DNA from: Escherichia phage EC_OE_11
Sequence record: OQ108497.1
Strand: one strand, 5' to 3'
Length of the DNA stretch: 64,000 nucleotides
The notes under the pieces are model-generated. The model ran no database searches, was not told the DNA's origin, and saw only the letters and a list, made by a program, of their open reading frames with translations. Each line of letters starts with the position of its first letter. The first letter of the stretch is position 1. Positions 14,378 to 47,511 of the stretch are shown here, piece after piece. The position numbers and the translations under genes are program-made.

Positions 14378-14395
14378 TCTTATCTCCTCTTTAAT

Positions 14396-14414: not shown

Positions 14415-14454
14415 TCTATGTCTTATACTATAAACTGTTTTTAAAGAAAGTCAA

Positions 14455-33646: not shown

Positions 33647-34819
33647 ATGGTAGCACTAAAATCATGGGAACAATATAAAGAAGAATTAATACCCCTTGCT
33701 AAAAATCACAATATTCAAATCTTGGGTTATGTTGGTGAATGGAAAGGGAACAAGACTAAACTTAAGCTATCTTGCCCTAAACATGGAGAGTGGAACACCA
33801 CGAACATTAATGATTTTAAGAAGGGACGTGGTTGTCCTATCTGTTCTGGTAAGAAGCCGTTAACATGGGAAACAGAATTGCCGATCTTGGAAGAGATAGC
33901 ACAGAAGAGGGGGTATCAGGTGTTAGGGTACGTGGGAGAATGGAAAGGGAATAAAACAAAACTTGATTTGTTGTGTCATTGTGGTAATAAATGGGATACT
34001 ACAAGTATTAACAATTTTAAACGTGGTAGCGGTTGTCCACAATGTAAGAGGGAGAGACAAACAATGTCCGACGATCAACATATTGCAGATTTCTTTTCTA
34101 CAGGGGAATTTAAGGAAGGCACTATCTTCACCAATACAGGGAAACGTAACAAGCGTGATGCAGTATGGATGGTTGAGTGTCCTGTTTGCTCCCATGATGA
34201 ATATGTTCAAGCAGGTGTTTGTGATGGTAAATTTTACTCTGCAGGACATAACCTTAAACAAGGGTATATTCCGTGTCGTTGTGGGAACTATCAGTATACA
34301 GAAGACCAGATCACCTATAGGGTAAAAAAGGAAGTAGAAGGGAAAGGGTATGTCTGGGTAGATTGGATTACCAAACCCTCTTCTATAGGTAAGTTTAAAT
34401 ATCTTTGTCTTGTGCATGGTGAGCAGATAGGGAGTGCTCGTAATTTATTAAGCCTCGGTCAAGGTTGTCCACAGTGTGCTGGTCATAATCAACAGCAATT
34501 ATATATTAATATTGTTAAAGATAATGATATTATAGTTGCTCTTAAGTTTGGCATAGCTAAAGATAGTGACAGGCGATTAAACAATCAAAATAGGCGTAAT
34601 ATGTTTTTTATGGAGCGTATTTGTTTATATGATTTTAGTACAGTGAAACAGTGTAAGGCTGCTGAAAGAGCTATAAAGAAAAAACTAAAAACTGGTATTT
34701 TAACAGCAAGAGAGTTGAAAGATGGTTATACAGAAACAGTAAGTGTTTCTGATTTGGAAAATCTTCAAAAAATTATTACACAATATGGTGGCAAGTTAGT
34801 ATACAGTAAGGAGGTGTAA
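33647..34819 (+). CDS. zinc-ribbon-repeat protein with C-terminal GIY-YIG-like (T5orf172/MUG113-type) domain
   Basis: Two about 45-aa repeats (GYVGEWKGNKTKL..C..G.W.TT.IN.FK.G.GCP.C) plus more CxxC pairs; C-terminal LYINIV...KFGIAKDSDRRL...AERAIKKKL. Confidence 0.45.
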   Translation: MVALKSWEQYKEELIPLAKNHNIQILGYVGEWKGNKTKLKLSCPKHGEWNTTNINDFKKGRGCPICSGKKPLTWETELPILEEIAQKRGYQVLGYVGEWKGNKTKLDLLCHCGNKWDTTSINNFKRGSGCPQCKRERQTMSDDQHIADFFSTGEFKEGTIFTNTGKRNKRDAVWMVECPVCSHDEYVQAGVCDGKFYSAGHNLKQGYIPCRCGNYQYTEDQITYRVKKEVEGKGYVWVDWITKPSSIGKFKYLCLVHGEQIGSARNLLSLGQGCPQCAGHNQQQLYINIVKDNDIIVALKFGIAKDSDRRLNNQNRRNMFFMERICLYDFSTVKQCKAAERAIKKKLKTGILTARELKDGYTETVSVSDLENLQKIITQYGGKLVYSKEV

Positions 34820-35371: not shown

Positions 35372-35585
35372 TATTTTGAAAATTTTTACTTTTATAAAAA
35401 GGGGTGTGGGTTTCATGTACGGAAATCCACCCTCTGAATAATATATCCAGAGTAAATATTATTCTGTACTCTGTTAATAAAGTATTTAATTTGTTTGTTG
35501 GACTATGGTATCTGATCTTTAAAAGGCATACTATCTCTTAACTACTATTTATAACAGAACAGTAAAATCATTTTTATAAAAAGGA

Positions 35586-35790
35586 CAAAATTATTTAAAG
35601 TTTTTACAGATTTTTGGATACAAATTTTGAAAATGAAAAGTTCAAGTTTGGTCAAAATTATTTAAAGTTTTTGTACGTATTTCTATCCAGATTTTGAAAA
35701 TGAAAACTTCAATTTTTTAAAAATTCCCCAGTTTATTTAAAGTTTTTTTGCCTTTTTCCGTAGAAAAATCAAAAATGAAAAGTTCAATTT
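35586..35790. repeat. 3 tandem copies of about 67-bp AT-rich unit
   Basis: Each unit has AAAATTATTTAAAGTTTTT and ATTTTGAAAATGAAAAGTTCAA. Confidence 0.7.
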
Positions 35791-35811
35791 CGTGTTTTTA
35801 TAGGTGTGCGT

Positions 35812-35925
35812 ATGATAATCATTCTCATTTGTAAATGAGAATCATTATCATTTAATTATGTAAGTGATAATCATTCTCAGTAAGAGAATGAGAATCATTA
35901 GCAAATGAGAATTTTTCTCATTTAG
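35812..35925. promoter_or_regulatory. cluster of Fur-box-like motifs (GATAATCATTCTCATT / AATGAGAATCATTATC)
   Basis: At least 5 units in both orientations resembling Fur consensus GATAATGATAATCATTATC. Confidence 0.5.
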
Positions 35926-35929
35926 AGAA

Positions 35930-36480
35930 TAACGCGCAGGGGTGGTGTTTGTCTCGCGCTCCCGTGTCCCTCGCCATACAATAAGAATAGCATAACCAAC
36001 AACAAAAGCAAGCGATTATTTTTATCTTTACATTTCTTTACAAATTTATTTTAGACGAGCTACCGGCGATCAACCTTCCAACCAGTGCCCCTGGTATGTT
36101 AGCCCCGCCTTTACGCCGTGGGGGTGGCGCTTCCTCTTCTGTATGTAAAACAGTATAAGCCCGATCCCTGGGCTTGTCAAGATTATTTTTTGTTTTCTTG
36201 CCAGGAAAGGACACCTAACCAAAAATACATATCGCCCCGCGCCCCTGGCGGGATCTTGCTTTCCCCGCCGCCACTGCAAGCCCATAAATAACCATCAGCG
36301 AACGGATCAAAATGTTCTATCTCTTCCACCTTATGATCGCCCAGGTTGAGAACGGTTTCAACCTTTAAGCCCGTTGCGCTTGCTACCTGGTGCACCGTGC
36401 CGCCTTGCCAGCCCAATGAGTGCATGAGATGTAAAGGAGTATTTGTCATGGTATCGCCCTTTCTTTGATGTGCGCCCTGG
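35930..36480. other. GC-rich compositional island inside AT-rich non-coding hub
   Basis: Visibly GC-rich versus flanks; only weak ORFs. Confidence 0.5.
36183..36449 (-). CDS. hypothetical protein (88 aa) within GC-rich island; possibly acquired
   Basis: ATG 36449 with AAAGGGCG SD-like; atypical codon composition. Confidence 0.3.
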   Translation of the reverse strand: MTNTPLHLMHSLGWQGGTVHQVASATGLKVETVLNLGDHKVEEIEHFDPFADGYLWACSGGGESKIPPGARGDMYFWLGVLSWQENKK

Positions 36481-36714
36481 TTGGCGCGGTAGAAAGATAA
36501 TAGCCGTTTCCTTTATAGATAGCAAGCAAAAAGAAATGAAAAAAAGATTAAAAAATGGTTGACGTTCCTCACCTGGTAGCGTAGTATTCATCTTGTCGAG
36601 GGGGGCAAGGCACAACGACAATAAACAATAGGCGGGTGCAATGCAGGACGGGCAAAGGTGAGGATCTCCACAATCCACCGTCACAATAACATTACTTATA
36701 AAAGGTTGATAACG

Positions 36715-36810
36715 ATGATCAAGAAAGAAAACAGCTTGACGGTTGGAACGATTAACGCTATCATTCTAGCCGTTCCATTTTGGATTGTAGTAGCGGTTGT
36801 TATTTTCTAA
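36715..36810 (+). CDS. small membrane peptide (31 aa), speculative
   Basis: ATG 36715; single hydrophobic helix; weak SD. Confidence 0.25.
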   Translation: MIKKENSLTVGTINAIILAVPFWIVVAVVIF

Positions 36811-36819
36811 AAAATATTC

Positions 36820-36878
36820 TTGACAACGTTTTTTAATCTGATAAGATGTATCACATAGGGCGGCAATAGTGCCGCTCA
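36820..36878 (+). promoter_or_regulatory. promoter + 5'-leader stem-loop cassette (PeSL-like, type B)
   Basis: TTGACA-16nt-TAAGAT then GCGGC-aatagt-GCCGC hairpin, SD, ATG 36900. Confidence 0.55.
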
Positions 36879-36899
36879 TAACAGAAGAGAGAAATAATC

Positions 36900-37172
36900 A
36901 TGGCATCATATAGCGCATCAATGATCGTAACGGGCATGACTGGTAAACCTATGCGCGGTGGCGGATCTTTCGCTAACATCAATATTGATGGGCGTTTATC
37001 CCTGGATGCAGCGATCACCGTGGCACGGGAAACATTTAAAAAAGAATGTAATTTCAATAAACAAGATTATCTCGGCTTCGTTATTGAAAAAACCGCGCGC
37101 TTTGTTGATTATAAAAGCCCGAAAATGATCGACACTACACTAAAAGCGCAAGATGTAGCATTTTTGCTTTAA
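36900..37172 (+). CDS. hypothetical protein
   Basis: 90 aa. Confidence 0.55.
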   Translation: MASYSASMIVTGMTGKPMRGGGSFANINIDGRLSLDAAITVARETFKKECNFNKQDYLGFVIEKTARFVDYKSPKMIDTTLKAQDVAFLL

Positions 37173-37175
37173 GGC

Positions 37176-37235
37176 TTGACACTGAAAAATAATTTAGTAA
37201 TATATACCACATAGGGCGGGAAATGGTTTCCCGCC
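37176..37235 (+). promoter_or_regulatory. promoter + stem-loop cassette (type A: GGGCGGGaaatggtttCCCGCC)
   Basis: TTGACA-16nt-TAATAT then 22-nt hairpin. Confidence 0.6.
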
Positions 37236-37257
37236 AAATCAAAGAAAGGGTAACACA

Positions 37258-37620
37258 ATGAGCAAGCAAATCAATACTATCATGTTAAACCTGGTATCTT
37301 TCCGCGATGACGTGAAAAATCTTTCGCGTGATGCAGTGGATGCACGGATCGAAAGCTATCGCACACAGATCGCGACATTACCGTTAAAACGTGATCAACA
37401 TGCCGCTAATATGATGCTTGATGCTATGATTAAAAAGATGATTCAATGTGATCTTACCCTGGCTTATGAATATGCTGGCGATCTTTTTGTAACGTATAAT
37501 AAACCCGTTCCAGGTATGAGCACCACGGAAGAATTGCATGCCTTAAATCTGCGACAAGATGCATGGGATAACATGCGCCGTGTTATGGTATGGGTAGAAA
37601 GCGGTAAAATTTACGAATAA
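37258..37620 (+). CDS. hypothetical protein
   Basis: 120 aa. Confidence 0.55.
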   Translation: MSKQINTIMLNLVSFRDDVKNLSRDAVDARIESYRTQIATLPLKRDQHAANMMLDAMIKKMIQCDLTLAYEYAGDLFVTYNKPVPGMSTTEELHALNLRQDAWDNMRRVMVWVESGKIYE

Positions 37621-37626
37621 AAACGG

Positions 37627-37680
37627 TTGACATTGCACGAAAACCTGATAAGCTATCTTAAAGCGGGAATTGTTCCCGCT
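37627..37680 (+). promoter_or_regulatory. promoter + stem-loop cassette (variant AGCGGGaattgttCCCGCT)
   Basis: TTGACA-16nt-TAAGCT then hairpin. Confidence 0.55.
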
Positions 37681-37698
37681 TACATAGGATAAAACTTT

Positions 37699-37845
37699 AT
37701 GAAACAATATGTAATGAGTATCCACACCAAAAACGGCGCTACTGTTACGACTCCGGCACGGTTTGCACTTGTAAACCGTTGCAAGAGACTAAAACGAGAG
37801 TTAAAAAATAACCGTGCAACGGGCTTTAAACGCTGGGGAGGATAA
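37699..37845 (+). CDS. small basic protein (48 aa), not in ORF track
   Basis: ATG 37699 downstream of cassette. Confidence 0.45.
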   Translation: MKQYVMSIHTKNGATVTTPARFALVNRCKRLKRELKNNRATGFKRWGG

Positions 37846-37847
37846 TC

Positions 37848-38108
37848 TTGTTTTTTCTAAAAGTTTGTGATAATGTGATCGCTTTTGAACATGCTACAAC
37901 GTTCGACCTGGCGAGATACGCTATCAGGTTTAAAGATAATGTTTATCCCCGTGCTGGCGGCGGTTACACTATTTTTAATCACCGTAACGCTCAATTAACG
38001 GATATAACTAATCCAGATCCTGGAGTGTATCGCATAGGCTGGCTACCGTCAAAAGACGCTGCAAGCATGTTTAAGGTGTGCAAACTACTAACAGAAGAGG
38101 CGAACTAA
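37848..38108 (+). CDS. hypothetical protein (TTG start as in ORF track; GTG at 37875 alternative)
   Basis: GGAGG SD 7 nt upstream of TTG. Confidence 0.45.
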   Translation: MFFLKVCDNVIAFEHATTFDLARYAIRFKDNVYPRAGGGYTIFNHRNAQLTDITNPDPGVYRIGWLPSKDAASMFKVCKLLTEEAN

Positions 38109-38109
38109 C

Positions 38110-38664
38110 ATGGGGCGTGAATATGTGATCCAGTCCTGGGTAAAGCATGATGCTAATGATCCGCGCATAATACCAGATGACATGATCGATCACATGGTAG
38201 GGTATAGCGGGGAGCAGATAGGAAATCGAGCGGCAAAGAGCAACGGCAACACCAGGACGCGATCCGTTCGCCCTGGATGGCTGGCGAATGGTAACGCTGA
38301 CATTGCAAGCGCCGCAGATCCAAGCGATGACGCTAAAAATAATCCCTTATACAGCATTGATCCGGCTTTTAAGGTGTTAGAAGAGTATCCCGCTAAATTA
38401 GCCGCACTAGATAAGGCATACGAAGAAAAGCGCATGGCATGGACTGTATACAACACCGCTAAAATGGTGCTAGATGCAAAATTGATTAAAGCCCAGGAGA
38501 AGATCAATAAACTTGTTACCATAGCGCAAGAGGAAGACCAGGACTACCAGGAGGAAGCGGAAGAAATCATGCCTACTCTGGAAGAGGAAGAGATCCAGCC
38601 ATACATGCCGACGGAAGAGGAAAAAAGACAAGCCCTAAAAAATTATGAAAATTGCATTGTGTAA
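38110..38664 (+). CDS. hypothetical protein with acidic C-terminal tail
   Basis: 184 aa, coupled. Confidence 0.55.
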   Translation: MGREYVIQSWVKHDANDPRIIPDDMIDHMVGYSGEQIGNRAAKSNGNTRTRSVRPGWLANGNADIASAADPSDDAKNNPLYSIDPAFKVLEEYPAKLAALDKAYEEKRMAWTVYNTAKMVLDAKLIKAQEKINKLVTIAQEEDQDYQEEAEEIMPTLEEEEIQPYMPTEEEKRQALKNYENCIV

Positions 38665-38667
38665 GGC

Positions 38668-38724
38668 TTGACATAGGCAAACAAGCCCCGTAATATGTAC
38701 CACATAAAGCGGGGCAACGCCCCA
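38668..38724 (+). promoter_or_regulatory. promoter + stem-loop cassette (variant)
   Basis: TTGACA-17nt-TAATAT then GGGGC-aac-GCCCC hairpin. Confidence 0.5.
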
Positions 38725-38745
38725 TAAGGTGAAATAAAAAATCAC

Positions 38746-38773
38746 TTGACACCTGAAATCAGTAAGCTATAAT
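38746..38773 (+). promoter_or_regulatory. sigma70-like promoter (no stem-loop)
   Basis: TTGACA-16nt-TATAAT. Confidence 0.55.
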
Positions 38774-38810
38774 GCTTATATAGATTGAAACATTACTAAG
38801 GAATAAAAGC

Positions 38811-38990
38811 ATGGCTATTATTGCAAAGACTGAGATCGTAGGTTTAGATTCTATCATCCTGGCATATGAGGAAGCTATAGAAATGTATGTGGTTTCCTAT
38901 GGTGATTATATCCGTGAATATAAATCTATTGATCTAGCTTTTGAATGCTATATTCGCCAGGTCAATAAAGCATATGATGATTATCGTTAA
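38811..38990 (+). CDS. small hypothetical protein (59 aa), not in ORF track
   Basis: ATG 38811 downstream of tandem promoters. Confidence 0.45.
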   Translation: MAIIAKTEIVGLDSIILAYEEAIEMYVVSYGDYIREYKSIDLAFECYIRQVNKAYDDYR

Positions 38991-39009
38991 AAGTTTTAGT
39001 CTTGTGCTA

Positions 39010-39038
39010 TTGACAACGAACGATAGTACAAGCATAAT
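39010..39038 (+). promoter_or_regulatory. sigma70-like promoter
   Basis: TTGACA-17nt-CATAAT. Confidence 0.5.
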
Positions 39039-39085
39039 AACTTTTATCGGGAATACTCCTAACTAATCAAAAGAGATTAAAGACT

Positions 39086-39451
39086 ATGGCTAAAAATATC
39101 AATGTTTCTGCTTATGCTACCCTGGCTAACACTGCTAAAATTGAACTATCCAGCATTGAAGCGGTACATATTAGCGCCCGTCGCTGGTTTCAAAAGTCTT
39201 ATGGTAATACTTATTTCTCTTTGATGGTTGACGTTGAGATCGGCGGTAAACTGATCGAAGTAGTTAACGTTCCGTTTCAATATGGTTATGGGGATCATTT
39301 TGATACCGTTGCCCTAGAAGAGTTTAGCAAGGTTATCAACCTGGAAGGTAAAGACTTTTCAAATTATGCTTACCTTTCCCGCTTTTGCCGTGATAATGGG
39401 ATCGCTGTATACAGTCATGCAAGCGATGTAAAACGTAAAAAAGATTTATAA
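39086..39451 (+). CDS. hypothetical protein
   Basis: 121 aa. Confidence 0.55.
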   Translation: MAKNINVSAYATLANTAKIELSSIEAVHISARRWFQKSYGNTYFSLMVDVEIGGKLIEVVNVPFQYGYGDHFDTVALEEFSKVINLEGKDFSNYAYLSRFCRDNGIAVYSHASDVKRKKDL

Positions 39452-39457
39452 AAAGCA

Positions 39458-39517
39458 TTGACAGCACGAATAAAAAGCATATAATACTTATATCGAGAGC
39501 GGGAATAGTTCCCGCCT
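39458..39517 (+). promoter_or_regulatory. promoter + stem-loop cassette (variant AGCGGGaatagttCCCGCC)
   Basis: TTGACA-16nt-TATAAT then hairpin. Confidence 0.6.
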
Positions 39518-39539
39518 CACTGAAAAAGAGATTAACATC

Positions 39540-39779
39540 ATGGCTAAATCTAAAATGTACAACGGTCACAAAAATAAAACTCATTGGAATGTAAGCCTTT
39601 GGATTAATAATGATGAATCGTTATACTTATACGCTGTAGGTTTAATAAATGAGTGCGGCAATAAAGATAAAGCGGCGGATCTGATGTGCTACAGATTAAA
39701 ACAGGATGGAATCACTCATACACCTGATGGTTTCAAGTATAGTAAAACTGCAATCCGTGCCGCTATGGTAGGAATGTAA
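39540..39779 (+). CDS. hypothetical protein
   Basis: 79 aa. Confidence 0.55.
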   Translation: MAKSKMYNGHKNKTHWNVSLWINNDESLYLYAVGLINECGNKDKAADLMCYRLKQDGITHTPDGFKYSKTAIRAAMVGM

Positions 39780-39788
39780 TAAAAGCAG

Positions 39789-39848
39789 TTGACAACGTTT
39801 TTTAATCTGGTATAGTTTATCGCATAGGGCGGGAAATGGTTTCCCGCC
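39789..39848 (+). promoter_or_regulatory. promoter + stem-loop cassette (type A)
   Basis: TTGACA-16nt-TATAGT then GGGCGGGaaatggtttCCCGCC. Confidence 0.6.
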
Positions 39849-39870
39849 AAATCAAAGAAAGGTTATCATT

Positions 39871-40098
39871 ATGGCTATCGTTATTGTTCGCGTATCCGGC
39901 ACGGTTGGAATCTCCCAGGTAGTAGCAGTTATCACCGAGAAGAAAGGGGATGATCTTCACTCCTCATTGAATAGCTGGGCGGTCGCTAACTTTGGGCAAT
40001 GGTCGAGCGTTGAGTACATCGAATCCTACCAGGTGCCAACGATTAGCCTGACCGATCTCAACGTTGATCGTCTGTTATGCCTGGATCAATTAAACTAA
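39871..40098 (+). CDS. hypothetical protein
   Basis: 75 aa. Confidence 0.55.
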   Translation: MAIVIVRVSGTVGISQVVAVITEKKGDDLHSSLNSWAVANFGQWSSVEYIESYQVPTISLTDLNVDRLLCLDQLN

Positions 40099-40106
40099 AA
40101 ATAATA

Positions 40107-40164
40107 TTGACAAGACAACTAAAATTAGTAAAATGTAATTCATAGGGCGGCAATAGTGCCGCCC
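40107..40164 (+). promoter_or_regulatory. promoter + stem-loop cassette (type B)
   Basis: TTGACA-16nt-TAAAAT then GGGCGGC-aatagt-GCCGCCC. Confidence 0.6.
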
Positions 40165-40185
40165 CTAGTAAGAGAGATTATCAAA

Positions 40186-40401
40186 ATGGCTAATATCCGC
40201 ACCTTGTTAAAAAATGCAAAGCAAGTTTTATTTTCAGATGACGAGTATTTCAACAAAGACATTACAGGCGTGAAAAATTTAAAAGACGTGAAGGATGTTA
40301 TCGGTATCCGTGGATCTTTACGTAAAGGTGACATATACGGTAACAAGGTGCAATATAAACTGTCAAAAGATTATGATTTTACTTTGACAATTATTTCATA
40401 A
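40186..40401 (+). CDS. hypothetical protein (71 aa)
   Basis: Start moved to ATG 40186 (MANIRTLL). Confidence 0.5.
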   Translation: MANIRTLLKNAKQVLFSDDEYFNKDITGVKNLKDVKDVIGIRGSLRKGDIYGNKVQYKLSKDYDFTLTIIS

Positions 40402-40407
40402 AACTAC

Positions 40408-40470
40408 TTGTAAACCTGGTAAAATAAAGTAAACTATATTCATCAAGGCGGTGGAATAGCCCACCGCCTA
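40408..40470 (+). promoter_or_regulatory. promoter-like + stem-loop cassette (variant GGCGGTGGaatagCCCACCGCC)
   Basis: TTGTAA -35-like, long hairpin, then SD and ATG 40493. Confidence 0.45.
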
Positions 40471-40492
40471 ACAAAGAGAAGAGGAAAATATC

Positions 40493-40663
40493 ATGATCAC
40501 TTTCGCTACCCGTGAAGCCGCTCGCAACGTTGCACGTAAAGTTAACGCCGCAAACCTGGGCGCTACGCTTAAAGCCCCGGTGAAAGATGAATCAGGAAAA
40601 TGGATCTTTCCTGGTCTGCGTCACGCTGATAAGCTGGGAACATTAACGTTAAAAAATAAATAA
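40493..40663 (+). CDS. small hypothetical protein (56 aa), not in ORF track
   Basis: ATG 40493 with GAGGAAAA SD-like. Confidence 0.45.
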   Translation: MITFATREAARNVARKVNAANLGATLKAPVKDESGKWIFPGLRHADKLGTLTLKNK

Positions 40664-40670
40664 TATCCGC

Positions 40671-40729
40671 TTGACAGTAGCATCATTTATAAGTAAAGTA
40701 ACAACAACGGCGGGAAATGGTTTCCCGCC
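40671..40729 (+). promoter_or_regulatory. promoter + stem-loop cassette (type A)
   Basis: TTGACA, -10-like, GGCGGGaaatggtttCCCGCC. Confidence 0.55.
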
Positions 40730-40749
40730 ATCAATAAAGAGATAAGATT

Positions 40750-41109
40750 ATGAAATCAGTAAAAGCAATTAAAACTTACATTGTGTCGGCTATTTCTTTT
40801 GATGGTACTACAACCGAAAAAGAAAAAATCACCGAACTGATGCGCCGTTTTAACTCTGAATACTGGTATCAATCTAATCGTGATCGTTATAATAACAATA
40901 TGGTACAAGCTGTTAAAAGCTGGTTGCAAGGTTTACCGTCAGATATCAATATCGCTTTTAATTATAACGAGATCGATCAATTATTAATTGAATGGAAGTA
41001 CATAAAAGAAACAAGCAAAGAAACAACCGTTACCCGTGAGCGGGAAAATTATTGGTTATATATTGCAAGCATGATCGTAACTTTGGCAAAATATCATAAC
41101 GTAGCGTAA
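40750..41109 (+). CDS. hypothetical protein
   Basis: 119 aa. Confidence 0.55.
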   Translation: MKSVKAIKTYIVSAISFDGTTTEKEKITELMRRFNSEYWYQSNRDRYNNNMVQAVKSWLQGLPSDINIAFNYNEIDQLLIEWKYIKETSKETTVTRERENYWLYIASMIVTLAKYHNVA

Positions 41110-41123
41110 TCGAGAGGAAAAAC

Positions 41124-41261
41124 ATGAACGCATCACAGCAGATCGAAAAATTCAACCGCAACAAAGCGCGTAAAGATTGGAACGAAGAGATCACCAAGAA
41201 AGGCGACAAGCGGAACAAAACAAAGAGAGATCGCAGCAGCAAAAGATACTGGAACGAATAA
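41124..41261 (+). CDS. small basic protein (45 aa), not in ORF track
   Basis: ATG 41124 with GAGAGG SD; K/R-rich. Confidence 0.4.
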   Translation: MNASQQIEKFNRNKARKDWNEEITKKGDKRNKTKRDRSSKRYWNE

Positions 41262-41263
41262 CA

Positions 41264-41290
41264 AAAAAGGGCGCAATAAGCGCCCTTTTA
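41264..41290 (+). terminator. intrinsic terminator
   Basis: GGGCGC-aataa-GCGCCC + TTTT. Confidence 0.75.
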
Positions 41291-41379
41291 GCTTATATAG
41301 GGGCTTGTTAGTTATAGGCAATGGTAACGCCAGGATAAGCCTATAAACCACGTTAGACAGCTTTACAGGAGCTTTAAAA

Positions 41380-41562
41380 ATGAAATTAGACGAAATAAGC
41401 AAGGCACTAGCCCAGGGGCAAAGGTTATGCGCCCGATATCGTGATCAATATGGCTTTATAACTAGCGGCGTGATCCTGGGGATTGAAGACAATAAAATTT
41501 TTATTGACACGTGGAAAAACGTTGTATATAGTGACAATATAATCTCAATAAAACATATATGA
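41380..41562 (+). CDS. hypothetical protein
   Basis: 60 aa. Confidence 0.5.
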   Translation: MKLDEISKALAQGQRLCARYRDQYGFITSGVILGIEDNKIFIDTWKNVVYSDNIISIKHI

Positions 41563-41570
41563 GGCAAGAA

Positions 41571-41972
41571 ATGAAAAAATTATTGATCGCTGGTTTACTC
41601 TCTTTTGGTATGGTTGGAACATCTAGCGCGGCGATATCCTCCACAGTAGCAGAATTAAGCGCCGTTGATGCAATGGAAAACGTCATGATCATTAATAATG
41701 CGATCCCCGATGAAATCATGGAGGATTCACACATGATCGCTTATGGTGCTATTACACAACTGACGGCAAAAATAGATAAATCTATTGTTAATGGCTTAAA
41801 TGAAGATGTACCATGCGAAATTATTACCAGTGTGCTCACTACTCAAAATTTTACGCCGTGGTTAAAAAGTATTCAAAAAGTACACAGTACAGCCGCAGAT
41901 CGTAGCAATGAAAAACTAGTGTCAGCACTTGCAACGTATACCCTAGCAAAATGTACTGAAATAAAAGATTGA
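41571..41972 (+). CDS. secreted protein (signal peptide)
   Basis: MKKLLIAGLLSFGMVGTSSA signal; start at 41571 with GAGG SD (ORF-track start 41559 also possible). Confidence 0.5.
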   Translation: MKKLLIAGLLSFGMVGTSSAAISSTVAELSAVDAMENVMIINNAIPDEIMEDSHMIAYGAITQLTAKIDKSIVNGLNEDVPCEIITSVLTTQNFTPWLKSIQKVHSTAADRSNEKLVSALATYTLAKCTEIKD

Positions 41973-42019
41973 CAACATAGAAAGCACGTTATAAGATACA
42001 CACAACAAAGGAGAACTAC

Positions 42020-42322
42020 ATGAACGGCATAGCTAAAACGTTTTTTCTTTTTTCTGGTGTAAATGATCCATCAATAAAAGTCGATAGCGTAAAAGAAAAC
42101 AATACTATCACCGCTAAATTATTTCAAGATGAAACAAATAACGTGCTAATCATTAATCTTAAAGAAATAACAAAAGGTTATTATACTATTGCTTACCATG
42201 CGATCTATAATGCTGATACTAGTGAGGAAGTGCAAACAAGCAACAACGAAAGCGCGGCGCTACCTGGTGATCTGGTGCTGGGCGTTATCAGTTTAATTGT
42301 CAATGATTTTTTTAAGGAGTAA
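42020..42322 (+). CDS. hypothetical protein
   Basis: 100 aa. Confidence 0.5.
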   Translation: MNGIAKTFFLFSGVNDPSIKVDSVKENNTITAKLFQDETNNVLIINLKEITKGYYTIAYHAIYNADTSEEVQTSNNESAALPGDLVLGVISLIVNDFFKE

Positions 42323-42326
42323 AACC

Positions 42327-42422
42327 ATGCCCTATTTACATTTATTTTTCGGTATCTTATTGACAGGATCTTTTTTCTTCTGTATGCTTGTTTCTATTGT
42401 AAACCACGTTTTAAGACATTAA
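42327..42422 (+). CDS. tiny membrane peptide (31 aa), speculative
   Basis: AAGGAG SD 7 nt upstream of ATG 42327. Confidence 0.35.
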   Translation: MPYLHLFFGILLTGSFFFCMLVSIVNHVLRH

Positions 42423-42431
42423 GGAAACAGC

Positions 42432-42551
42432 ATGAAAATTATTCCCGTACAGTATAGCGTAATAAATCCAGCATATGAGGAAGGAAGGAAAACAAGCATG
42501 GCTTTATGTTGTATTGCTACTATAACCATGTTGTTATACATTGTGTTTTAA
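42432..42551 (+). CDS. small membrane peptide (39 aa), speculative
   Basis: ATG 42432; hydrophobic C-terminus. Confidence 0.25.
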   Translation: MKIIPVQYSVINPAYEEGRKTSMALCCIATITMLLYIVF

Positions 42552-42580
42552 TAGGTTTTATAGTTGTACGCTTTAAAGGC

Positions 42581-42608
42581 TTGACAATTTTTTGTTATGC
42601 TTTAAAAT
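42581..42608 (+). promoter_or_regulatory. sigma70-like promoter
   Basis: TTGACA-16nt-TAAAAT. Confidence 0.5.
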
Positions 42609-42651
42609 ATATCTTGAAAACGGCAAAGGCCGCAAACAAAAGGGTAAAATT

Positions 42652-42975
42652 ATGAAATCTGTGATCGGTGTTTATTTGGATAACTCTGATTTTTTCTATC
42701 ATCGCGCTCGTTTCCTTGATGCGATTGAAATGATAGAATCAGGCTTTAAAGAGTATCGCCTTGCACATGATGACCTGGAAGCATTACAGGACAATAGTGT
42801 TTTTACATTGCAAGCTAAAGCACTATGCAAAAGCCGGATCGACATTGCAAGCAAAAAGATAGAACGCGGCATGTCCTGGTTGCGCACCGCAGAAATCAAC
42901 ATGGGGCAATGGTACGGCGAAAACTTAGAAAATAAACACACTTTTGTAAATGTAGAAAATATTAAAGATTATTGA
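42652..42975 (+). CDS. hypothetical protein (107 aa)
   Basis: Start moved to ATG 42652 downstream of promoter. Confidence 0.5.
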   Translation: MKSVIGVYLDNSDFFYHRARFLDAIEMIESGFKEYRLAHDDLEALQDNSVFTLQAKALCKSRIDIASKKIERGMSWLRTAEINMGQWYGENLENKHTFVNVENIKDY

Positions 42976-43037
42976 TTGACAGCACACCTGATAAGTAATA
43001 TATTGTATCTCATAGAGCGGGGAAATGGTTTCCCCGC
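42976..43037 (+). promoter_or_regulatory. promoter + stem-loop cassette (type A variant)
   Basis: TTGACA, TAATAT-like -10, AGCGGGGaaatggtttCCCCGCC. Confidence 0.55.
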
Positions 43038-43057
43038 CTTAACAGAAGAGATAAGAT

Positions 43058-43342
43058 ATGAAGATCACAAAAGCACTTTCCAACTATGCAGCACGTCGCG
43101 GCTTATGTTTAACCGTTGAAAACCTGGGGAAAGAAGATTTTTTGTGCTTTTGGGAGCTTGAGAATGATAATGAGTGGATCTTCTCTTATTCTATCTGCGA
43201 AGATCAAAACGGTTGTTTATTAACCTGGCGCGGTAATATCTATTTACCGCAAGAAATCAAAGAGGAACTACCAGGCACGATCATGACTGAGAAACAGCTT
43301 AAGGAAGTGATCAATTTTGTAGGGCAAAACATTAAAAAATAA
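43058..43342 (+). CDS. hypothetical protein
   Basis: 94 aa. Confidence 0.55.
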   Translation: MKITKALSNYAARRGLCLTVENLGKEDFLCFWELENDNEWIFSYSICEDQNGCLLTWRGNIYLPQEIKEELPGTIMTEKQLKEVINFVGQNIKK

Positions 43343-43343
43343 T

Positions 43344-43404
43344 TTGACACTAGGCAAACAACGTAGTAAAGTTTATCACATAGGGCGGGAAATGGTTTCC
43401 CGCT
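43344..43404 (+). promoter_or_regulatory. promoter + stem-loop cassette (type A)
   Basis: TTGACA then GGGCGGGaaatggtttCCCGCT. Confidence 0.55.
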
Positions 43405-43426
43405 CACAGTAGAAGAGAAACAAATC

Positions 43427-43597
43427 ATGATCCCAACTATGTTTTATGTATCGCGCAAAGGTCACAATATTTTTTGGTCTGAAGATTTAAATGAAGCCAT
43501 GACGTTTGCCCGTGATCGTGTTGCTATTGGTGGCGTTAATATCACTGTAACCGATGAAAATGGCATTGAATACTATAACGGCGACGATGAAGAGTAA
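43427..43597 (+). CDS. small hypothetical protein (56 aa), not in ORF track
   Basis: ATG 43427 downstream of cassette. Confidence 0.45.
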   Translation: MIPTMFYVSRKGHNIFWSEDLNEAMTFARDRVAIGGVNITVTDENGIEYYNGDDEE

Positions 43598-43604
43598 TTA
43601 ATGA

Positions 43605-43630
43605 GGCGGGGGGAGTATTCCCCGCCGTCA
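43605..43630 (+). promoter_or_regulatory. orphan GC stem-loop without obvious promoter
   Basis: GGCGGGGGG-agtatt-CCCCGCC between coupled genes. Confidence 0.4.
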
Positions 43631-43645
43631 ATAAAGAGATAAATC

Positions 43646-43915
43646 ATGAAAATATCATTAGACGTTGCAATCAAGGCCATCGAATCCGGTTACATCCTGG
43701 TAAAAGATGATAAGGCTAAAACCGTGCACCACGTTAACAAGGAAACAGGCGAAAGCATGATCACATATAAAGCCGCCTACTTTCTCCAATCAGTAGCAGA
43801 TCCGCGCGTACAACGCCAGGTTACAGCGGCTATTGCTAAAAAATTATGTGCTTTACAGGGCACAAGTTTTAACGAGATCGCCCCGTGTTTTGACTGGTCG
43901 AGCTTGAAAAAATAG
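43646..43915 (+). CDS. hypothetical protein
   Basis: 89 aa. Confidence 0.55.
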   Translation: MKISLDVAIKAIESGYILVKDDKAKTVHHVNKETGESMITYKAAYFLQSVADPRVQRQVTAAIAKKLCALQGTSFNEIAPCFDWSSLKK

Positions 43916-43916
43916 T

Positions 43917-43972
43917 TTGACAACAATTATAAATCGGGTAGAATGTATTTCGTAGGGCGGCAATAGTGCCGC
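43917..43972 (+). promoter_or_regulatory. promoter + stem-loop cassette (type B)
   Basis: TTGACA-16nt-TAGAAT then GGGCGGCaatagtGCCGC. Confidence 0.6.
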
Positions 43973-43995
43973 TCACAACTAAAAGAGAAATCATC

Positions 43996-44190
43996 ATGGC
44001 GCTTAAAAAATTAACAAGCAATACTCGTTGGGATGAAATCGACGGGGAAGTATACATTTTCGCCCGTAAACCAGGTGATCAAAAATGGTCAAAGGCTTTT
44101 ACTTGCCACCCTGCAACAATAGATCTAATAAAAAGTAAAGGTTTACGTGAAGCAGTAGCAAGGAGCTTACTGATCCCTTATAAAAAATAG
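43996..44190 (+). CDS. hypothetical protein (64 aa)
   Basis: Start moved to ATG 43996. Confidence 0.5.
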   Translation: MALKKLTSNTRWDEIDGEVYIFARKPGDQKWSKAFTCHPATIDLIKSKGLREAVARSLLIPYKK

Positions 44191-44191
44191 T

Positions 44192-44250
44192 TTGACAATA
44201 CGCGGTTATCTGGTAAAGTGTACGACATAGGGCGGGGCAATAAGGCAACG
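44192..44250 (+). promoter_or_regulatory. promoter + imperfect stem-loop cassette
   Basis: TTGACA-16nt-TAAAGT then GGGCG...CGCCC. Confidence 0.5.
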
Positions 44251-44271
44251 CCCACTAATGAGGGTAAAATC

Positions 44272-44376
44272 ATGTTAGAGAAAATTTTCACGGTTGTAGT
44301 AGTGGGCCTGGCGTTATCGGTTGGAGTGATTGCAACTATGGCTAACATGATCCTATCTTCCCACGGTATTGGATAA
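44272..44376 (+). CDS. small membrane peptide (34 aa), not in ORF track
   Basis: ATG 44272; single TM helix. Confidence 0.4.
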   Translation: MLEKIFTVVVVGLALSVGVIATMANMILSSHGIG

Positions 44377-44386
44377 GGTGAATCAA

Positions 44387-44602
44387 ATGATCACGAATAA
44401 GACAGGTAAAACAGAATTTTTACGCGGCTTGCAAATAGGTAAACCTGAAATCTGGCATTGCACTAAAACACCACGTGACGAAATGAAAGATTTCACCGCT
44501 ACTTTACAACGTGTTAAAATATCTATCACACAGAAAAAAGCCTTGTTAGTAGTAGAAAACGAGATCCCGCAAACCATTATTATTGTTGAGCGTACAGCAT
44601 GA
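44387..44602 (+). CDS. hypothetical protein (71 aa)
   Basis: ATG 44387 with AAGGTG SD; ORF track used upstream TTG. Confidence 0.5.
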   Translation: MITNKTGKTEFLRGLQIGKPEIWHCTKTPRDEMKDFTATLQRVKISITQKKALLVVENEIPQTIIIVERTA

Positions 44603-44985
44603 AAACAGAAATCATTATTGAAATCATCAACGGTTATAAAGAAGCCTTTATTTTTGCTGAATCCGCCAGGGATCATGAAGGTAATTTTATTGATAACTTA
44701 GACGATTATGATTTTTCAGATCAAGCCCATCAGCGGATTATACGTGACGTGGCGGCGTTTTGTGATGCCAATGATGCCGCTATCTCTGAGGCAATGAGCG
44801 ACGGCGCAACAGCCAACCAGATCGGGAATGATTTACATTTTACCCGTAATAGTCACGGCGTAGGCTTTTGGGATCGCCCTGAAATATACACTACTAACAC
44901 CGCCAACCGCTTAACTAATGCAGCTAAATTGATGCCATCGGTGCATGCTTACATTGGTGAAGATAATTTGATTTATATTGAATAA
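44599..44985 (+). CDS. hypothetical protein
   Basis: 128 aa, ATGA coupling. Confidence 0.55.
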   Translation: MKTEIIIEIINGYKEAFIFAESARDHEGNFIDNLDDYDFSDQAHQRIIRDVAAFCDANDAAISEAMSDGATANQIGNDLHFTRNSHGVGFWDRPEIYTTNTANRLTNAAKLMPSVHAYIGEDNLIYIE

Positions 44986-44991
44986 AAAGTA

Positions 44992-45050
44992 TTGACACCG
45001 ATCCCCAATATGGTATGATTTACCACGTAGGCGGGAAATGGTTTCCCGCC
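44992..45050 (+). promoter_or_regulatory. promoter + stem-loop cassette (type A)
   Basis: TTGACA-16nt-TGGTATGAT (extended -10) then GGCGGGaaatggtttCCCGCC. Confidence 0.6.
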
Positions 45051-45073
45051 AGGTAATCAAAAAGGTAAATACT

Positions 45074-45463
45074 ATGCGCAACCTGGTTTCTGTTTCTAAC
45101 GTTGAAAAATTTCAATCCTTGCAGGGTATCGTTAACAACGTAGCGCCTTTTTTAGTCAATGGCTTGATTGCAAAGATGAAGAATAAACATCATGCGGCAT
45201 GGTCTGCTTACTGCTTTGATAATGATGAAAAAGCGGCTGAAATGATGTTAAATATGCTGTTAGATAGTGTAGAATCATCTTTACCGGAAAACATCGCAGA
45301 AGAGATCACCTATCGTTATAATATGGCGATCACTTACCAGGAAGTGGCGCAATTTAATATGATGGATGATGACGAACAACAGGATCAGGAAATTTTCTGG
45401 GAGTATGCAGATCGTCAATCAGCTTTTGATGAAAAATTAGCGATGTATTATAACGAATATTAA
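45074..45463 (+). CDS. hypothetical protein (129 aa)
   Basis: Start moved to ATG 45074. Confidence 0.5.
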   Translation: MRNLVSVSNVEKFQSLQGIVNNVAPFLVNGLIAKMKNKHHAAWSAYCFDNDEKAAEMMLNMLLDSVESSLPENIAEEITYRYNMAITYQEVAQFNMMDDDEQQDQEIFWEYADRQSAFDEKLAMYYNEY

Positions 45464-45472
45464 TACACGGTA

Positions 45473-45504
45473 AAAGAAAGGGGCGCACTAAGCGCCCTTT
45501 TTTG
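45473..45504 (+). terminator. intrinsic terminator
   Basis: GGGCGC-actaa-GCGCCC + TTTTTT. Confidence 0.8.
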
Positions 45505-45849
45505 TATTCTTTTTTTCACGATGGAAACAACACGTAAAGAATAGGCGTAAAGGTGGCGTAAAACCATCTAAAACCGACTGTAACCGCTTAAACAAGGTAG
45601 GAATGATTAATCACCTTACCAGGATGAAAAAGCTGTTAGAGAGCTATTCAGAGCGTTTAAAGCACATAGGAAATAATTTGCTTTTTATCTTGCCTTTTAT
45701 CCTGCTTTTGATTATTATTATGGAACGGGCGGCACCTGGGGACAGGGGAAGATAATCACCGGAAGATCCCGCTATATATTAATAGCTAATACCTATTAAA
45801 CAACAAAACATCAAAGGTATAAACTATCAAATCTTTACAATTCTACCTA

Positions 45850-45878
45850 TTGACACCGGATCACGCTTACACTATTAT
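45850..45878 (+). promoter_or_regulatory. sigma70-like promoter
   Basis: TTGACA-17nt-TATTAT. Confidence 0.55.
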
Positions 45879-45924
45879 TTATCACGTAGGGCAAATCATT
45901 TTAAACGGTAAACGAGGAATCACC

Positions 45925-46308
45925 ATGAGCAATATCATCAACCTGGCAGCGACTGTAAACGGTAAAGACTTTAACGGCGCTGTAGACCGTGATCCTATGT
46001 GGTGCTTGTCAGTGTTTAAAGGCGATCTGGTTGAAGTTAGAACAACCGAAGGTTATAGCGACGATTATAAATGCGAGATCCATTTACATAACTGGTACAC
46101 GGGGAAAACTTATGCGCTGAATCACGCGTTTATCGGGAAAATTGAATATCGCGAGATGATCGACGAAGAAACGGGGCAAGATTTTAGCGATTATGTTTAT
46201 ATCCGTTCAGAAACATTAGCCGAACGTTTGATCGAGAAAATGAAAGCAAAAAATAAAATTAATTTATCTCATTGGATTGATATAACAAACGATCCTGCTT
46301 ATCAGTAA
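45925..46308 (+). CDS. hypothetical protein (127 aa)
   Basis: Start moved to ATG 45925. Confidence 0.5.
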   Translation: MSNIINLAATVNGKDFNGAVDRDPMWCLSVFKGDLVEVRTTEGYSDDYKCEIHLHNWYTGKTYALNHAFIGKIEYREMIDEETGQDFSDYVYIRSETLAERLIEKMKAKNKINLSHWIDITNDPAYQ

Positions 46309-46332
46309 ATAACATTTCATACCAGGGCGCAC

Positions 46333-46360
46333 AAAGCGCCCTTTCTTTTTACCTAAATAA
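46333..46360 (+). terminator. intrinsic terminator
   Basis: GGGCGC-acaaa-GCGCCC + TTTCTTTT. Confidence 0.75.
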
Positions 46361-46554
46361 AGATGATAGCTTTTACCTATCAAAAACGTTCACCGAAAAA
46401 AGTGAATAGATCGCGGTATCGAGCTAATCAAGGAGCAGATGAACAACCATACCATGAAGATCATAAGGCGCTTACAACGTGTTTTAGACCGCTTATTTTT
46501 AATTTCTCAATGTAACTATCGGGCAAAAACAGCCTTTTTCTTGTCTTTCCTCTT

Positions 46555-46572
46555 AAATGATAATCATTCTTA
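46555..46572. promoter_or_regulatory. Fur-box-like motif AAATGATAATCATTCTTA
   Basis: Matches GATAATGATAATCATTATC-type consensus. Confidence 0.45.
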
Positions 46573-46610
46573 TTTATAGCTGATTATTTATGCAATAAAC
46601 TGCATAATGC

Positions 46611-46630
46611 AATAATGATAATCATTCTTA
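46611..46630. promoter_or_regulatory. Fur-box-like motif AATAATGATAATCATTCTTA
   Basis: Second copy about 55 bp downstream. Confidence 0.45.
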
Positions 46631-46924
46631 ACTTATGACCATCTAACCTATAAAATAATAAGTTATCTAACTAAATTAAAGCTAACTATTTCACCTTTAT
46701 TTATAACTTACTGTTACTATCTCATTGATAACCTTATATTAAACAACAATAACTAATATAAATCATTACTAAGCTAAATATAATCTATCTAACCTTTAAA
46801 ACTATAACTATAATCTATCGAATTGTTGCACAAAGTAACTATTAAATTGTTAGTAACATTACTAAATAATTCACATCCTATCTATTTATGATCTAATCTT
46901 TACCTTCCTATCTATTACCTAAGT

Positions 46925-46956
46925 AATCATTTCATACAGCAATCATTTCATACAAC
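46925..46956. repeat. tandem direct repeat AATCATTTCATACA(G/A)C x2
   Basis: Two adjacent 16-bp units in ORF-free AT-rich region. Confidence 0.6.
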
Positions 46957-47019
46957 AACTATAACAAGAAATATAATTAGCAAGCGTATCATTAGCAGCC
47001 TATGCCGGACACATAGGCG

Positions 47020-47165
47020 GCTAATAATAACGCAACTACACACCCCACATAATAACCATCACCGATAGTTATTATCTGTGCTTATGTAGCTTGCAACAAT
47101 TGCAAGCGCAACAATATACATGGTATATTGTATCCCTTACATTGTTGCGGTGCGTTATTATTAGC
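47020..47165. repeat. large dyad-symmetry element: 14-bp inverted repeats flanking about 120 bp with internal hairpins
   Basis: GCTAATAATAACGC at 47020-47033 vs exact reverse complement at 47152-47165; internal CGCAACAAT...ATTGTTGCG hairpin. Confidence 0.6.
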
Positions 47166-47511
47166 TAATGTTTGGAACATTGGCTATAATATAAGCTACA
47201 TATAATAAGCTATTCAATAATAAACATCGTGAATAATGACATTGAAATGAATAATGACACTGATGATCATAATGCGCCACCTTCCAGGGGGCGCTATGTG
47301 AACACAAAGAAATCTTTCTTGTCAAGAAAAATATCACCATTATTGCGCAAAATTATTTATATCTGAATAGATGATTTTTCATACTATTGCCCCTATACAC
47401 TACCTCATTTGTTGCAATGTATCCCCCTATTTGTTGAGCCTATTCTCTTAAAAGCGCAATAAATCAGAATTATCTTGATTTTTAGTGGATTTTATAGTAT
47501 AGAAAATATGC

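Follow-up and report, generated by a model that had tools for sequence, protein, structure and literature searches.

Layout of the array

Positions 36820-45878 of a 64,000-nt stretch from Escherichia phage EC_OE_11 (OQ108497.1), which as a whole is referred to here as the window, hold an array of small open reading frames (ORFs) interspersed with repeated regulatory cassettes. The cassettes appear to share one plan. The stop codon of the upstream gene in an A-rich tract is followed by a putative sigma70 promoter, a short leader that starts at about CATAG, a hairpin of the type GCGG...CCGC, a purine-rich Shine-Dalgarno (SD) sequence, and ATG. The intergenic gaps that carry them are 78-95 nt long, and in these the upstream stop codon is indeed set in an A-rich tract.

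By its sequence matches the source phage is a phi92-like myovirus of the genus Justusliebigvirus (Stephanstirmvirinae) and not a T4-type phage, because 36820-45878 matches JohannJBalmer (MZ501084.1, 80047-89077) across its full length at 98.8% identity, and phi92, alia, VEcB, BME3 and other members of Justusliebigvirus at about 95%. A first-pass annotation of the window had likened the array to cassettes of T4-type phages, a group to which this phage does not belong. Across genomes with capsid genes that are 98.6-99.2% identical, the array region has an identity of about 95%. In public records the array genes are annotated as hypothetical, and the phi92 record carries ribosome-binding sites as its sole annotation.

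Promoters

In 36811-45927 the + strand holds 19 copies of the strict pattern TTGACA-N16/17-TAnnnT and the - strand none. The rest of the window (54.9 kb) has 10 copies on its two strands taken together. Dinucleotide shuffles of the array region (n = 300) gave 0.11 ± 0.33 matches, with a maximum of 2. Gap-by-gap examination reveals 18 intergenic sites with a perfect TTGACA, which score 9-12 out of 12 and have A-rich upstream tracts. The first-pass annotation had described at least 18 promoter cassettes and near-consensus sigma70 promoters in front of small ORFs, and these counts agree with both statements. It had also placed a promoter in nearly every gap. Ten junctions between genes, however, have no cassette, and several cassettes therefore head mini-operons of two to four genes. 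Additional sites are a weak promoter at 40408 (TTGTAA/TAAACT) and two possible intragenic promoters inside short ORFs (41504-41532 and 42360-42388).

The individual cassettes

All cassettes of the array are on the + strand, and their -35 box is a perfect TTGACA unless another sequence is given. Cassette 1 (36820-36899) has its promoter at 36820-36847 (TTGACA-16-TAAGAT), a hairpin at 36858-36877 (GGGCGGCAATAGTGCCGCTC) and an SD sequence before the gene at 36900-37172. Cassette 2 (37176-37257) has its promoter at 37176-37203 and its hairpin at 37215-37235 (GGCGGGAAATGGTTTCCCGCC), and precedes the gene at 37258-37620. Cassette 3 (37627-37698; promoter 37627-37654, -10 TAAGCT, score 9/12; hairpin 37661-37681) heads a mini-operon with genes at 37699-37845, 37848-38108 and 38110-38664. 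Tandem promoters follow at 38668-38810. The first (38668-38696) has a short, weaker hairpin (38711-38723), the second (38746-38773, 12/12) has none, and the gene is at 38811-38990. The cassette at 39010-39085 lacks a strong hairpin (promoter 39010-39038, TTGACA-17-CATAAT; gene 39086-39451). The next (39458-39539) combines a 12/12 promoter at 39458-39485 with a hairpin at 39499-39515 (GCGGGAATAGTTCCCGC) and the gene 39540-39779.

A mosaic cassette is located at 39789-39870 (promoter 39789-39816, hairpin 39828-39848, gene 39871-40098). It is followed by a cassette at 40107-40185 with promoter 40107-40134, hairpin 40145-40164 (GGGCGGCAATAGTGCCGCCC) and gene 40186-40401. At 40408-40492 the weak promoter (TTGTAA-16-TAAACT, 8/12) is followed by a hairpin at 40446-40469 (AGGCGGTGGAATAGCCCACCGCCT) and the gene 40493-40663. 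The cassette at 40671-40749 (promoter 40671-40699, hairpin 40709-40729) serves genes 40750-41109 and 41124-41261. A promoter-only cassette at 41969-42019 (promoter 41969-41997) has a 22-nt leader without a hairpin before the gene 42020-42322, and the cassette at 42581-42651 (promoter 42581-42608) has a weak 4-bp hairpin (CGGCAAAGGCCG) before the gene 42652-42975.

In the last part of the array, promoter 42976-43004 and hairpin 43017-43037 (GCGGGGAAATGGTTTCCCCGC) form the cassette 42976-43057 before the gene 43058-43342, and promoter 43344-43372 and hairpin 43383-43405 form the cassette 43344-43426 before the gene 43427-43597. The junction at 43598-43645 is hairpin-only. It has a hairpin at 43605-43626 (GGCGGGGGGAGTATTCCCCGCC) and an SD sequence, but no promoter, before the gene 43646-43915. 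This hairpin stands at the usual distance from the SD sequence and is kept in four relatives. The cassette 43917-43995 has promoter 43917-43944, hairpin 43955-43974 and gene 43996-44190. Promoter 44192-44219 with an imperfect hairpin (44230-44255; cassette 44192-44271) heads genes 44272-44376, 44387-44602 and 44599-44985. The cassette 44992-45073 has promoter 44992-45019, hairpin 45030-45050 and gene 45074-45463. The last cassette (45850-45924) has promoter 45850-45878, a degenerate hairpin and the gene 45925-46308. An outlying cassette of the same design is found on the - strand at 14377-14454 (TTGACT-16-TATAGT, CATAG, hairpin 14414-14396 (GCGGAGGATTGTCCTCCGC), AAAGAGGAG, ATG).

The leader hairpins

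A GC-rich hairpin follows the promoter at 14 sites, close to the 13 or so reported in the first-pass annotation, and five cassettes are without a strong hairpin. Folding of the leader RNAs gave stable hairpins, with free energies between -14 and -19 kcal/mol and z-scores between -3.3 and -5.2 relative to shuffles; the exception is the hairpin at 38710 (-8.6 kcal/mol, z -1.6). The SD sequence and ATG are unpaired in the folded leaders.

Positions and sequences were compared in 75 unique leaders. These come from 10 phages, namely that of the window and nine relatives that represent Justusliebigvirus, Phapecoctavirus, WPEC1, Seunavirus and Vequintavirus, and the cassette design is kept in all five groups. 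The median distance from the end of the -10 box to the start of the stem is 10 nt (sd 1.7), with values of 10 or 11 nt in 47 of the 75 leaders. The stem lies at a more variable distance from the ATG (median 21 nt, sd 3.3). The first-pass annotation had the hairpin about 20 nt before the SD sequence; the stem in fact ends 7-13 nt before the purine-rich SD sequence, and it is the ATG that is about 21 nt away. RNA polymerase of Escherichia coli usually starts 7-8 nt after the -10 box. The predicted start is the A of the conserved CATAG, which would place the hairpin at about +4 to +24 of its own transcript. Since the stem begins 10-11 nt after the -10 box, the hairpin should be transcribed. The stem is followed by an A-rich segment, with on average about 1.3 T in the first 8 nt, and then by a purine-only SD sequence of the AAGAG type.

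The stems have 7-10 bp. Their base, GCGG/CCGC (pairs 1-4), is essentially invariant, and they stay paired through double-sided changes at pairs 5-7. Because an alignment of the leaders with MAFFT was structurally inconsistent, it was replaced by anchored counting and by a covariance model built from six equal-length hairpins of the window. In the anchored counts pair 5 is G-C in 30, C-G in 11, T-A in 1 and A-T in 1, and pair 6 is A-T in 36, G-C in 5 and G.T in 2. Other stems in the family are GCGGAGG/CCTCCGC, GGCGGTGG/CCACCGCC, GGGGC/GCCCC, GGGCA/TGCCC and AGGAGAGC/GCTCTCCT. The loops are 3 to 9 nt long and biased towards A/U-G-G or UAG. Formal covariation statistics were dropped, as there are only about 10 (9-10) distinct arm combinations. 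In the covariance-model alignment of 26 unique cores, which leans towards the model, G.U outnumbers A.C on the sense strand by 13 to 1 over at least six pair positions. This excess may lend moderate support to selection on the sense-strand RNA.

Credible matches to the covariance model in the complete JohannJBalmer genome are confined to 80.4-88.3 kb. A scan for promoter plus hairpin added two outlying cassettes of the same design with different stems, one of them the - strand cassette at 14377-14454 of the window. Rfam gave no match at gathering scores over the whole window, and at E ≤ 1 only three weak matches, at chance level, in the array region.

The downstream genes

The cassettes precede 29 + strand ORFs with a median length of 79 aa. 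Their products were expected to be unrelated small proteins, and a BLASTP comparison among the 29 revealed no match of one to another at E ≤ 1e-3. The ten array ORFs scanned against PHROGs all fall into families of unknown function. In a Pfam scan of the ten largest, a single match was obtained: the ORF at 45925-46305, behind the last cassette, belongs to Phage_30_8, the T4 gp30.8 family (E = 3.7e-29). PADLOC gave no credible match for the same ten. The 29 early ORFans constitute a candidate set for host-takeover or anti-defence screens.

Cassettes as boundaries of exchange

Breakpoints were defined as the ends of homology blocks inside the array in blastn comparisons of 35500-47500 with phi92, alia, muut, cardinal, BME3 and JohannJBalmer. 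Seventeen of 24 distinct breakpoints lie inside cassettes (± 5 nt), which cover 19% of the region (binomial p = 6e-8), and five of the remaining seven are within 15 nt of a cassette. The exchange of cassette-flanked genes between related phages that had been envisaged is thus seen here as insertions, deletions and replacements. The breakpoints are spread over the -35 box, spacer, -10 box, hairpin and SD/ATG and are not focused on the hairpin, a spread more in keeping with general homologous recombination than with a site-specific process at the hairpin.

Individual events have the same character. phi92 lacks 43421-43906, comprising two genes, and has a single hybrid cassette at the junction; both window cassettes that flank the segment align to this one phi92 cassette, where they overlap by 84 nt. 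A 320-nt cassette-plus-ORF insertion is present in JohannJBalmer and alia exactly at the TTGACA (-35) of 45850. In muut, 36567-37618, which lies between two -35 boxes, is missing. Extra ORFs in BME3 and muut have duplicated cassette sequence on their flanks, and the gene order in the Phapecoctavirus ASO2A differs from that in the window.

The cassettes themselves are mosaics. They had been called nearly identical, but an independent repeat finder gave only 60-83% identity to its reference. Cassette 39789 is a chimera whose promoter half matches 36820 and whose leader half matches 37176. At locus 43344 the window and JohannJBalmer, 98.7% identical as compared here, differ only by a patch of about 28 nt in which one hairpin type is swapped for the other, and this swap indicates a short gene-conversion tract.

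Exchange also crosses larger distances. Segment 38799-38992 and the module 43905-44600 are 93.8% and 86.9% identical, respectively, to the Vequintavirus Mangalyan, whereas the major capsid gene shows at most 66% identity to Vequintavirus over at most 23% of its length. Modules that are 87-94% identical next to a capsid gene that barely aligns show that cassette-plus-ORF units move between subfamilies.

A different kind of insert is found at window position 39780. In alia (4465-4551 of the compared alia stretch), cardinal and BME3, 87 nt with a 24-codon ORF and its own SD sequence, but without a cassette, lie between the stop codon and the next -35 box.

A proposed role for cassette and hairpin

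We propose that 36820-45878 is a hyperplastic early-gene region, variable and built of portable cassettes of about 85 bp that would serve both expression and recombination, with the hairpin acting as a stabiliser or insulator of the leader RNA and not as a terminator. We put the probability of this reading as a whole at roughly 0.55. Unmodified host RNA polymerase would start at every cassette immediately after infection, as the promoter sequences and the tested analogues of phage RB49 suggest; in measurements on equivalent cassettes of RB49, these proved to be very strong promoters (PMC2839356). Each small ORF or mini-operon of two to four genes would thereby obtain its own strong early transcript. 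The hairpin would be the first structured element of that mRNA and, in read-through transcripts, would come to lie between cistrons. There it could limit 5'-end-dependent attack by RppH and RNase E, block 3' exonucleases for the upstream cistron, or hold a standard SD sequence single-stranded irrespective of the ORF that follows. Analogy with known leaders makes protection of the 5' end plausible. The retention of hairpin 43605-43626 without a promoter suggests that part of the function is independent of a location at a 5' end, and a barrier to 3' exonucleases for the upstream cistron and insulation of the SD sequence are candidates for this part. The sequence shared by the cassettes in turn provides homology for recombination, by which modules are deleted, inserted, replaced and translocated, as the comparison of genomes shows. 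Such recombination turns the cassettes into mosaics and passes modules between phage subfamilies that infect the same hosts.

Several points weigh against this proposal. Pairs 1-4 are invariant and there are only about ten arm combinations, so that the covariation rests on few independent events. A cruder count of G.U versus A.C gave 15 versus 7, which is not significant (p = 0.13). The hairpin-only junction and the five hairpin-less cassettes show that promoter and hairpin can work apart. With a start 7-8 nt after the -10 box, 3-4 unpaired nucleotides are predicted at the 5' end, and 5' protection may thus be weak. Two unpaired nucleotides suffice for RppH and RNase E, although both prefer at least three (PMC8833179). 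Scanning by RNase E is hardly hindered by a simple orthogonal stem-loop (PMC11194081), and a role for internal hairpins as scanning obstacles was rejected on this ground. The literature on these phages yielded no start-site, RNA half-life or 3'-end data. Finally, the stem-loop of an RB49 promoter cassette depressed the expression of a downstream lacZ to the same extent as the rrnB T1 terminator (PMC2839356), and by analogy the hairpin of the present cassettes may have an attenuator role.

Other roles were considered and set aside: an RNase III site, for which the stems are too short; a CsrA site, in view of the absence of a GGA loop motif; and a put-like antitermination RNA, since there is only a single short hairpin. 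The idea of an Srd-like RNase E activator beside the array, taken from a passage of PMC3606486, was not used; of ten neighbouring genes scanned with PHROGs, nine are of unknown function and one is an endonuclease.

Alternative explanations

If the hairpins terminated or attenuated transcription from upstream, the function proposed for the stem-loops of RB49-type elements, they would keep read-through from accumulating across a series of strong promoters. The lacZ result agrees with this, as does the persistence of hairpin 43605-43626 without a promoter. In the record of ASO2A (MZ726793.1) the homologous hairpins appear as 'rho-independent terminator', a prediction of WebGeSTer or TransTermHP. 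The RB49 stems, however, lie upstream of the start site, which is a different geometry. Each hairpin here is downstream of its own promoter, and an efficient terminator in this position would abort its own transcripts. The A-rich 8 nt after the stem contain only the 1.3 T noted above and no U-tract. The real terminators of the phage have another design, an A-tract, a GC stem and a T-tract. One is a canonical bidirectional intrinsic terminator inside the array at 41265-41289 (AAAAGGGCGC-loop-GCGCCCTTTT), and another, a strong intrinsic terminator at 45475-45503 on the + strand with a 12-bp stem and then a T-run, closes the main array. A terminator scan found these two and a third at 46324 and called none of the cassette hairpins on the + strand. 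A role in termination is unlikely because of self-abortion, the missing U-tract and the dissimilarity to these real terminators. The first-pass annotation had likewise treated the hairpins as leader elements distinct from canonical terminators, and their position downstream of the -10 box bears this out.

The three terminators (41265-41289, 45475-45503 and 46324-46342) form a family with GGGCGC-loop-GCGCCC and A and T runs on the flanks, and at least two of them are predicted on both strands. In the ASO2A record (4113-8266 of the compared stretch) 'promoter' is directly followed by 'rho-independent terminator' (WebGeSTer) ahead of one gene after another. These 'terminators' are probably leader hairpins that were mis-annotated.

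Leader elements of this kind might also be read rather than act by structure alone: an RNA-binding factor of phage or host would recognise them and time the shut-off or processing of the early mRNA class. The GCGG/CCGC base is invariant and the flanks are conserved, with CATAG before the stem and an A-rich segment after it, in two subfamilies with core genes that can hardly be aligned. This would be expected on this account, and so would the loop bias towards A/U-G-G or UAG. The G.U bias of the sense strand suggests an element that acts as RNA. No candidate RNA-binding protein, however, emerged from PHROGs scans of the genes nearby, the conservation is equally explicable by common descent and gene conversion among cassettes, and several members have different stems (for example GGGGC/GCCCC, GGGCA/TGCCC and AGGAGAGC/GCTCTCCT). 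We regard such a factor as quite unlikely. Somewhat more broadly, and as a doubtful suggestion, the hairpin with its GCGG/CCGC base and CAUAG could be a class tag on the early mRNAs of phi92- and rV5-like phages, read by a dedicated factor that protects, processes or shuts them off together, and the cassette a self-contained module by which unrelated myovirus subfamilies trade early genes in co-infection.

It is improbable that the inverted repeat acts as DNA, either as an operator for an early-promoter repressor at +4 to +24 or as a cruciform hotspot of site-specific recombination. A palindrome just past the start site of about 14 promoters does stand in the classic roadblock position, and RB49 crossovers have been located within or beside the stem-loop (PMC2839356). 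The spacing of the half-sites, however, varies from 3 to 9 nt, which is unsuited to a dimeric DNA-binding protein, and the half-sites change on both sides together. The preference of the sense strand for G.U over A.C and breakpoints that span the whole cassette, as in general homologous recombination, also count against a role as DNA. That the hairpin is a mere passenger of a cassette spreading by duplication and gene conversion is very improbable, despite the few independent stem variants and the five cassettes that work, or at least persist, without a strong one, since it is kept at a fixed position in two subfamilies, its stems remain paired despite changes on both sides, and one is retained without a promoter in five phages.

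Sequences next to the array

An ORF-poor stretch of about 1.3 kb directly upstream of the array contains repeats at 35570-35879: three AT-rich direct repeats of about 70 nt (35570-35790) and a tandem repeat of 29 nt x 2 (35818-35879). The alia record has repeat_region features annotated upstream of its array. The repeats could represent an origin or a regulatory region. A short way upstream of the array, 33647-34816 encodes a 390-aa protein that matches endonuclease and HNH endonuclease families of PHROGs (E = 2e-86) and is listed as hypothetical in JohannJBalmer. Between the strong terminator and the last cassette, the 386 nt at 45464-45849 have no convincing + strand ORF and include a short tandem repeat (45678-45709); two small - strand ORFs are annotated in the equivalent segment of JohannJBalmer.

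The first kb or so of Enterococcus phage heks (MT119359.1, Efquatrovirus, 39.7 kb) matches 36525-37796 at 94-96%. The match covers about 1-1015 of the record (2594-3609 of the compared stretch) and spans two cassettes and two genes. This end of heks is probably a chimeric assembly or Justusliebigvirus contamination, with an origin in Danish wastewater like that of alia and muut.

Comparison with known systems

The closest counterparts are the promoter early stem-loop (PeSL) elements of the T4-type phages RB49/phi1, T4/PST and KVP40/nt-1 (Arbiol et al. 2010, PMC2839356; Comeau et al. 2014, PMC4122927). A PeSL is a repeated intergenic unit of AT-rich tract, sigma70-like early promoter, stable stem-loop, SD sequence and start codon; its hallmarks are enrichment in hyperplastic regions, location at indel boundaries, formation of mini-circles and a terminator-like stem-loop (PMC2839356; PMC4122927). 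Five positional subclasses of stem-loop are distinguished, none of which lies beyond the start site: they occupy the AT-rich tract, the -35 box, the spacer, the -10 box or the segment just before the start site (PMC2839356; PMC4122927). In 17 intergenic gaps of RB49 examined here, promoter-embedded stems fill the -35/-10 spacer or straddle the -10 box and end between 5 nt before and 9 nt after the end of the -10. Among the gaps lacking an embedded stem, two have an upstream T-tailed terminator and one has no stem.

The likeness proposed in the first-pass annotation is therefore partial. The present cassettes share with PeSLs a repeated intergenic composite of 65-90 bp (A/T-rich stop-codon tract, promoter, GC stem-loop, SD sequence and ATG), a setting in a hyperplastic early region of small ORFans, and coincidence with indel and replacement breakpoints between close relatives. 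They differ in lineage, which is Stephanstirmvirinae and Vequintavirinae here and not Straboviridae, and in the stem, which begins 10-11 nt after the -10 box and is fully transcribed, whereas the RB49 stem is inside or astride the promoter. The position of the stem is fixed here, in contrast to the five positional subclasses. A cassette used as query for blastn in its distant mode matched 130 records, and no T4-type phage was found among the matches listed or in the tally of organism names; the matches listed are from Stephanstirmvirinae or Vequintavirinae, apart from one Enterococcus phage record that is probably chimeric.

The second comparison is with leaders that stabilise mRNA from the 5' end. 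The T7 gene 10 leader reportedly acts as such a 5'-terminal stem-loop, in work attributed to Mertens and colleagues (1996). In the 5' untranslated regions of ompA and papA a stabilising hairpin lies within a few nucleotides of the 5' end (references in PMC3997798). The cassettes resemble these leaders in having a stable hairpin a few nucleotides from the predicted 5' end and an unstructured SD region, and possibly in needing pairing rather than a particular sequence. They differ in the 3-4 nucleotides predicted to be unpaired, a borderline number for attack by RppH and RNase E, and in being present in about 14 copies in one array, with one copy persisting without a promoter. Intercistronic hairpins also shape the early mRNAs of other phages, as RNase III sites in T7 and as REP-like barriers to 3' exonucleases. 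A hairpin between early cistrons could define stable mRNA ends in the same way here, but stems of 7-10 bp are far shorter than RNase III substrates.

Promoter clusters have been described within the same supergroup. Clusters of sigma70-like promoters occur in small-ORF regions of the Certrevirus phages CB7, CR3, CR8 and CR9 (PMC7344957), and 33 promoters were predicted in rV5 (PMC3606486). Consensus host-type promoters, an A-rich upstream element and a region of short hypothetical ORFs are common to these Vequintavirinae clusters and the present array. The passages concerned give a promoter motif only, with no leader hairpin, cassette or role in recombination (PMC7344957, PMC3606486). The passages on promoters and terminators in the paper accompanying ASO2A give only counts. 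No leader hairpin, cassette or link to recombination is described in the parts covered of the literature on phi92-, rV5- and PVP-SE1-like phages; the search did not extend to the genome papers of phi92 (PMC3457257) and PVP-SE1, where an earlier mention is possible.

If the proposal is correct, the PeSL idea of a regulatory cassette that doubles as a recombination site extends to a second, unrelated group of large coliphages, the phi92-, phAPEC8-, rV5- and PVP-SE1-like phages, which are widely isolated for therapy. It would also predict in concrete terms at which sites this group acquires, loses and trades accessory early genes, across subfamilies as well. About 14 hairpins are flagged that at least one database record calls 'terminators' despite their location downstream of their own promoters, and the standard promoter-leader-SD unit would be a ready-made, naturally insulated expression part. 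Judged by sequence comparison, the cassettes work like PeSLs as recombination modules but are not members of that family by descent or by placement of the stem. The underlying principle is known; its extension to this phage group and the placement of the stem in the leader are new.

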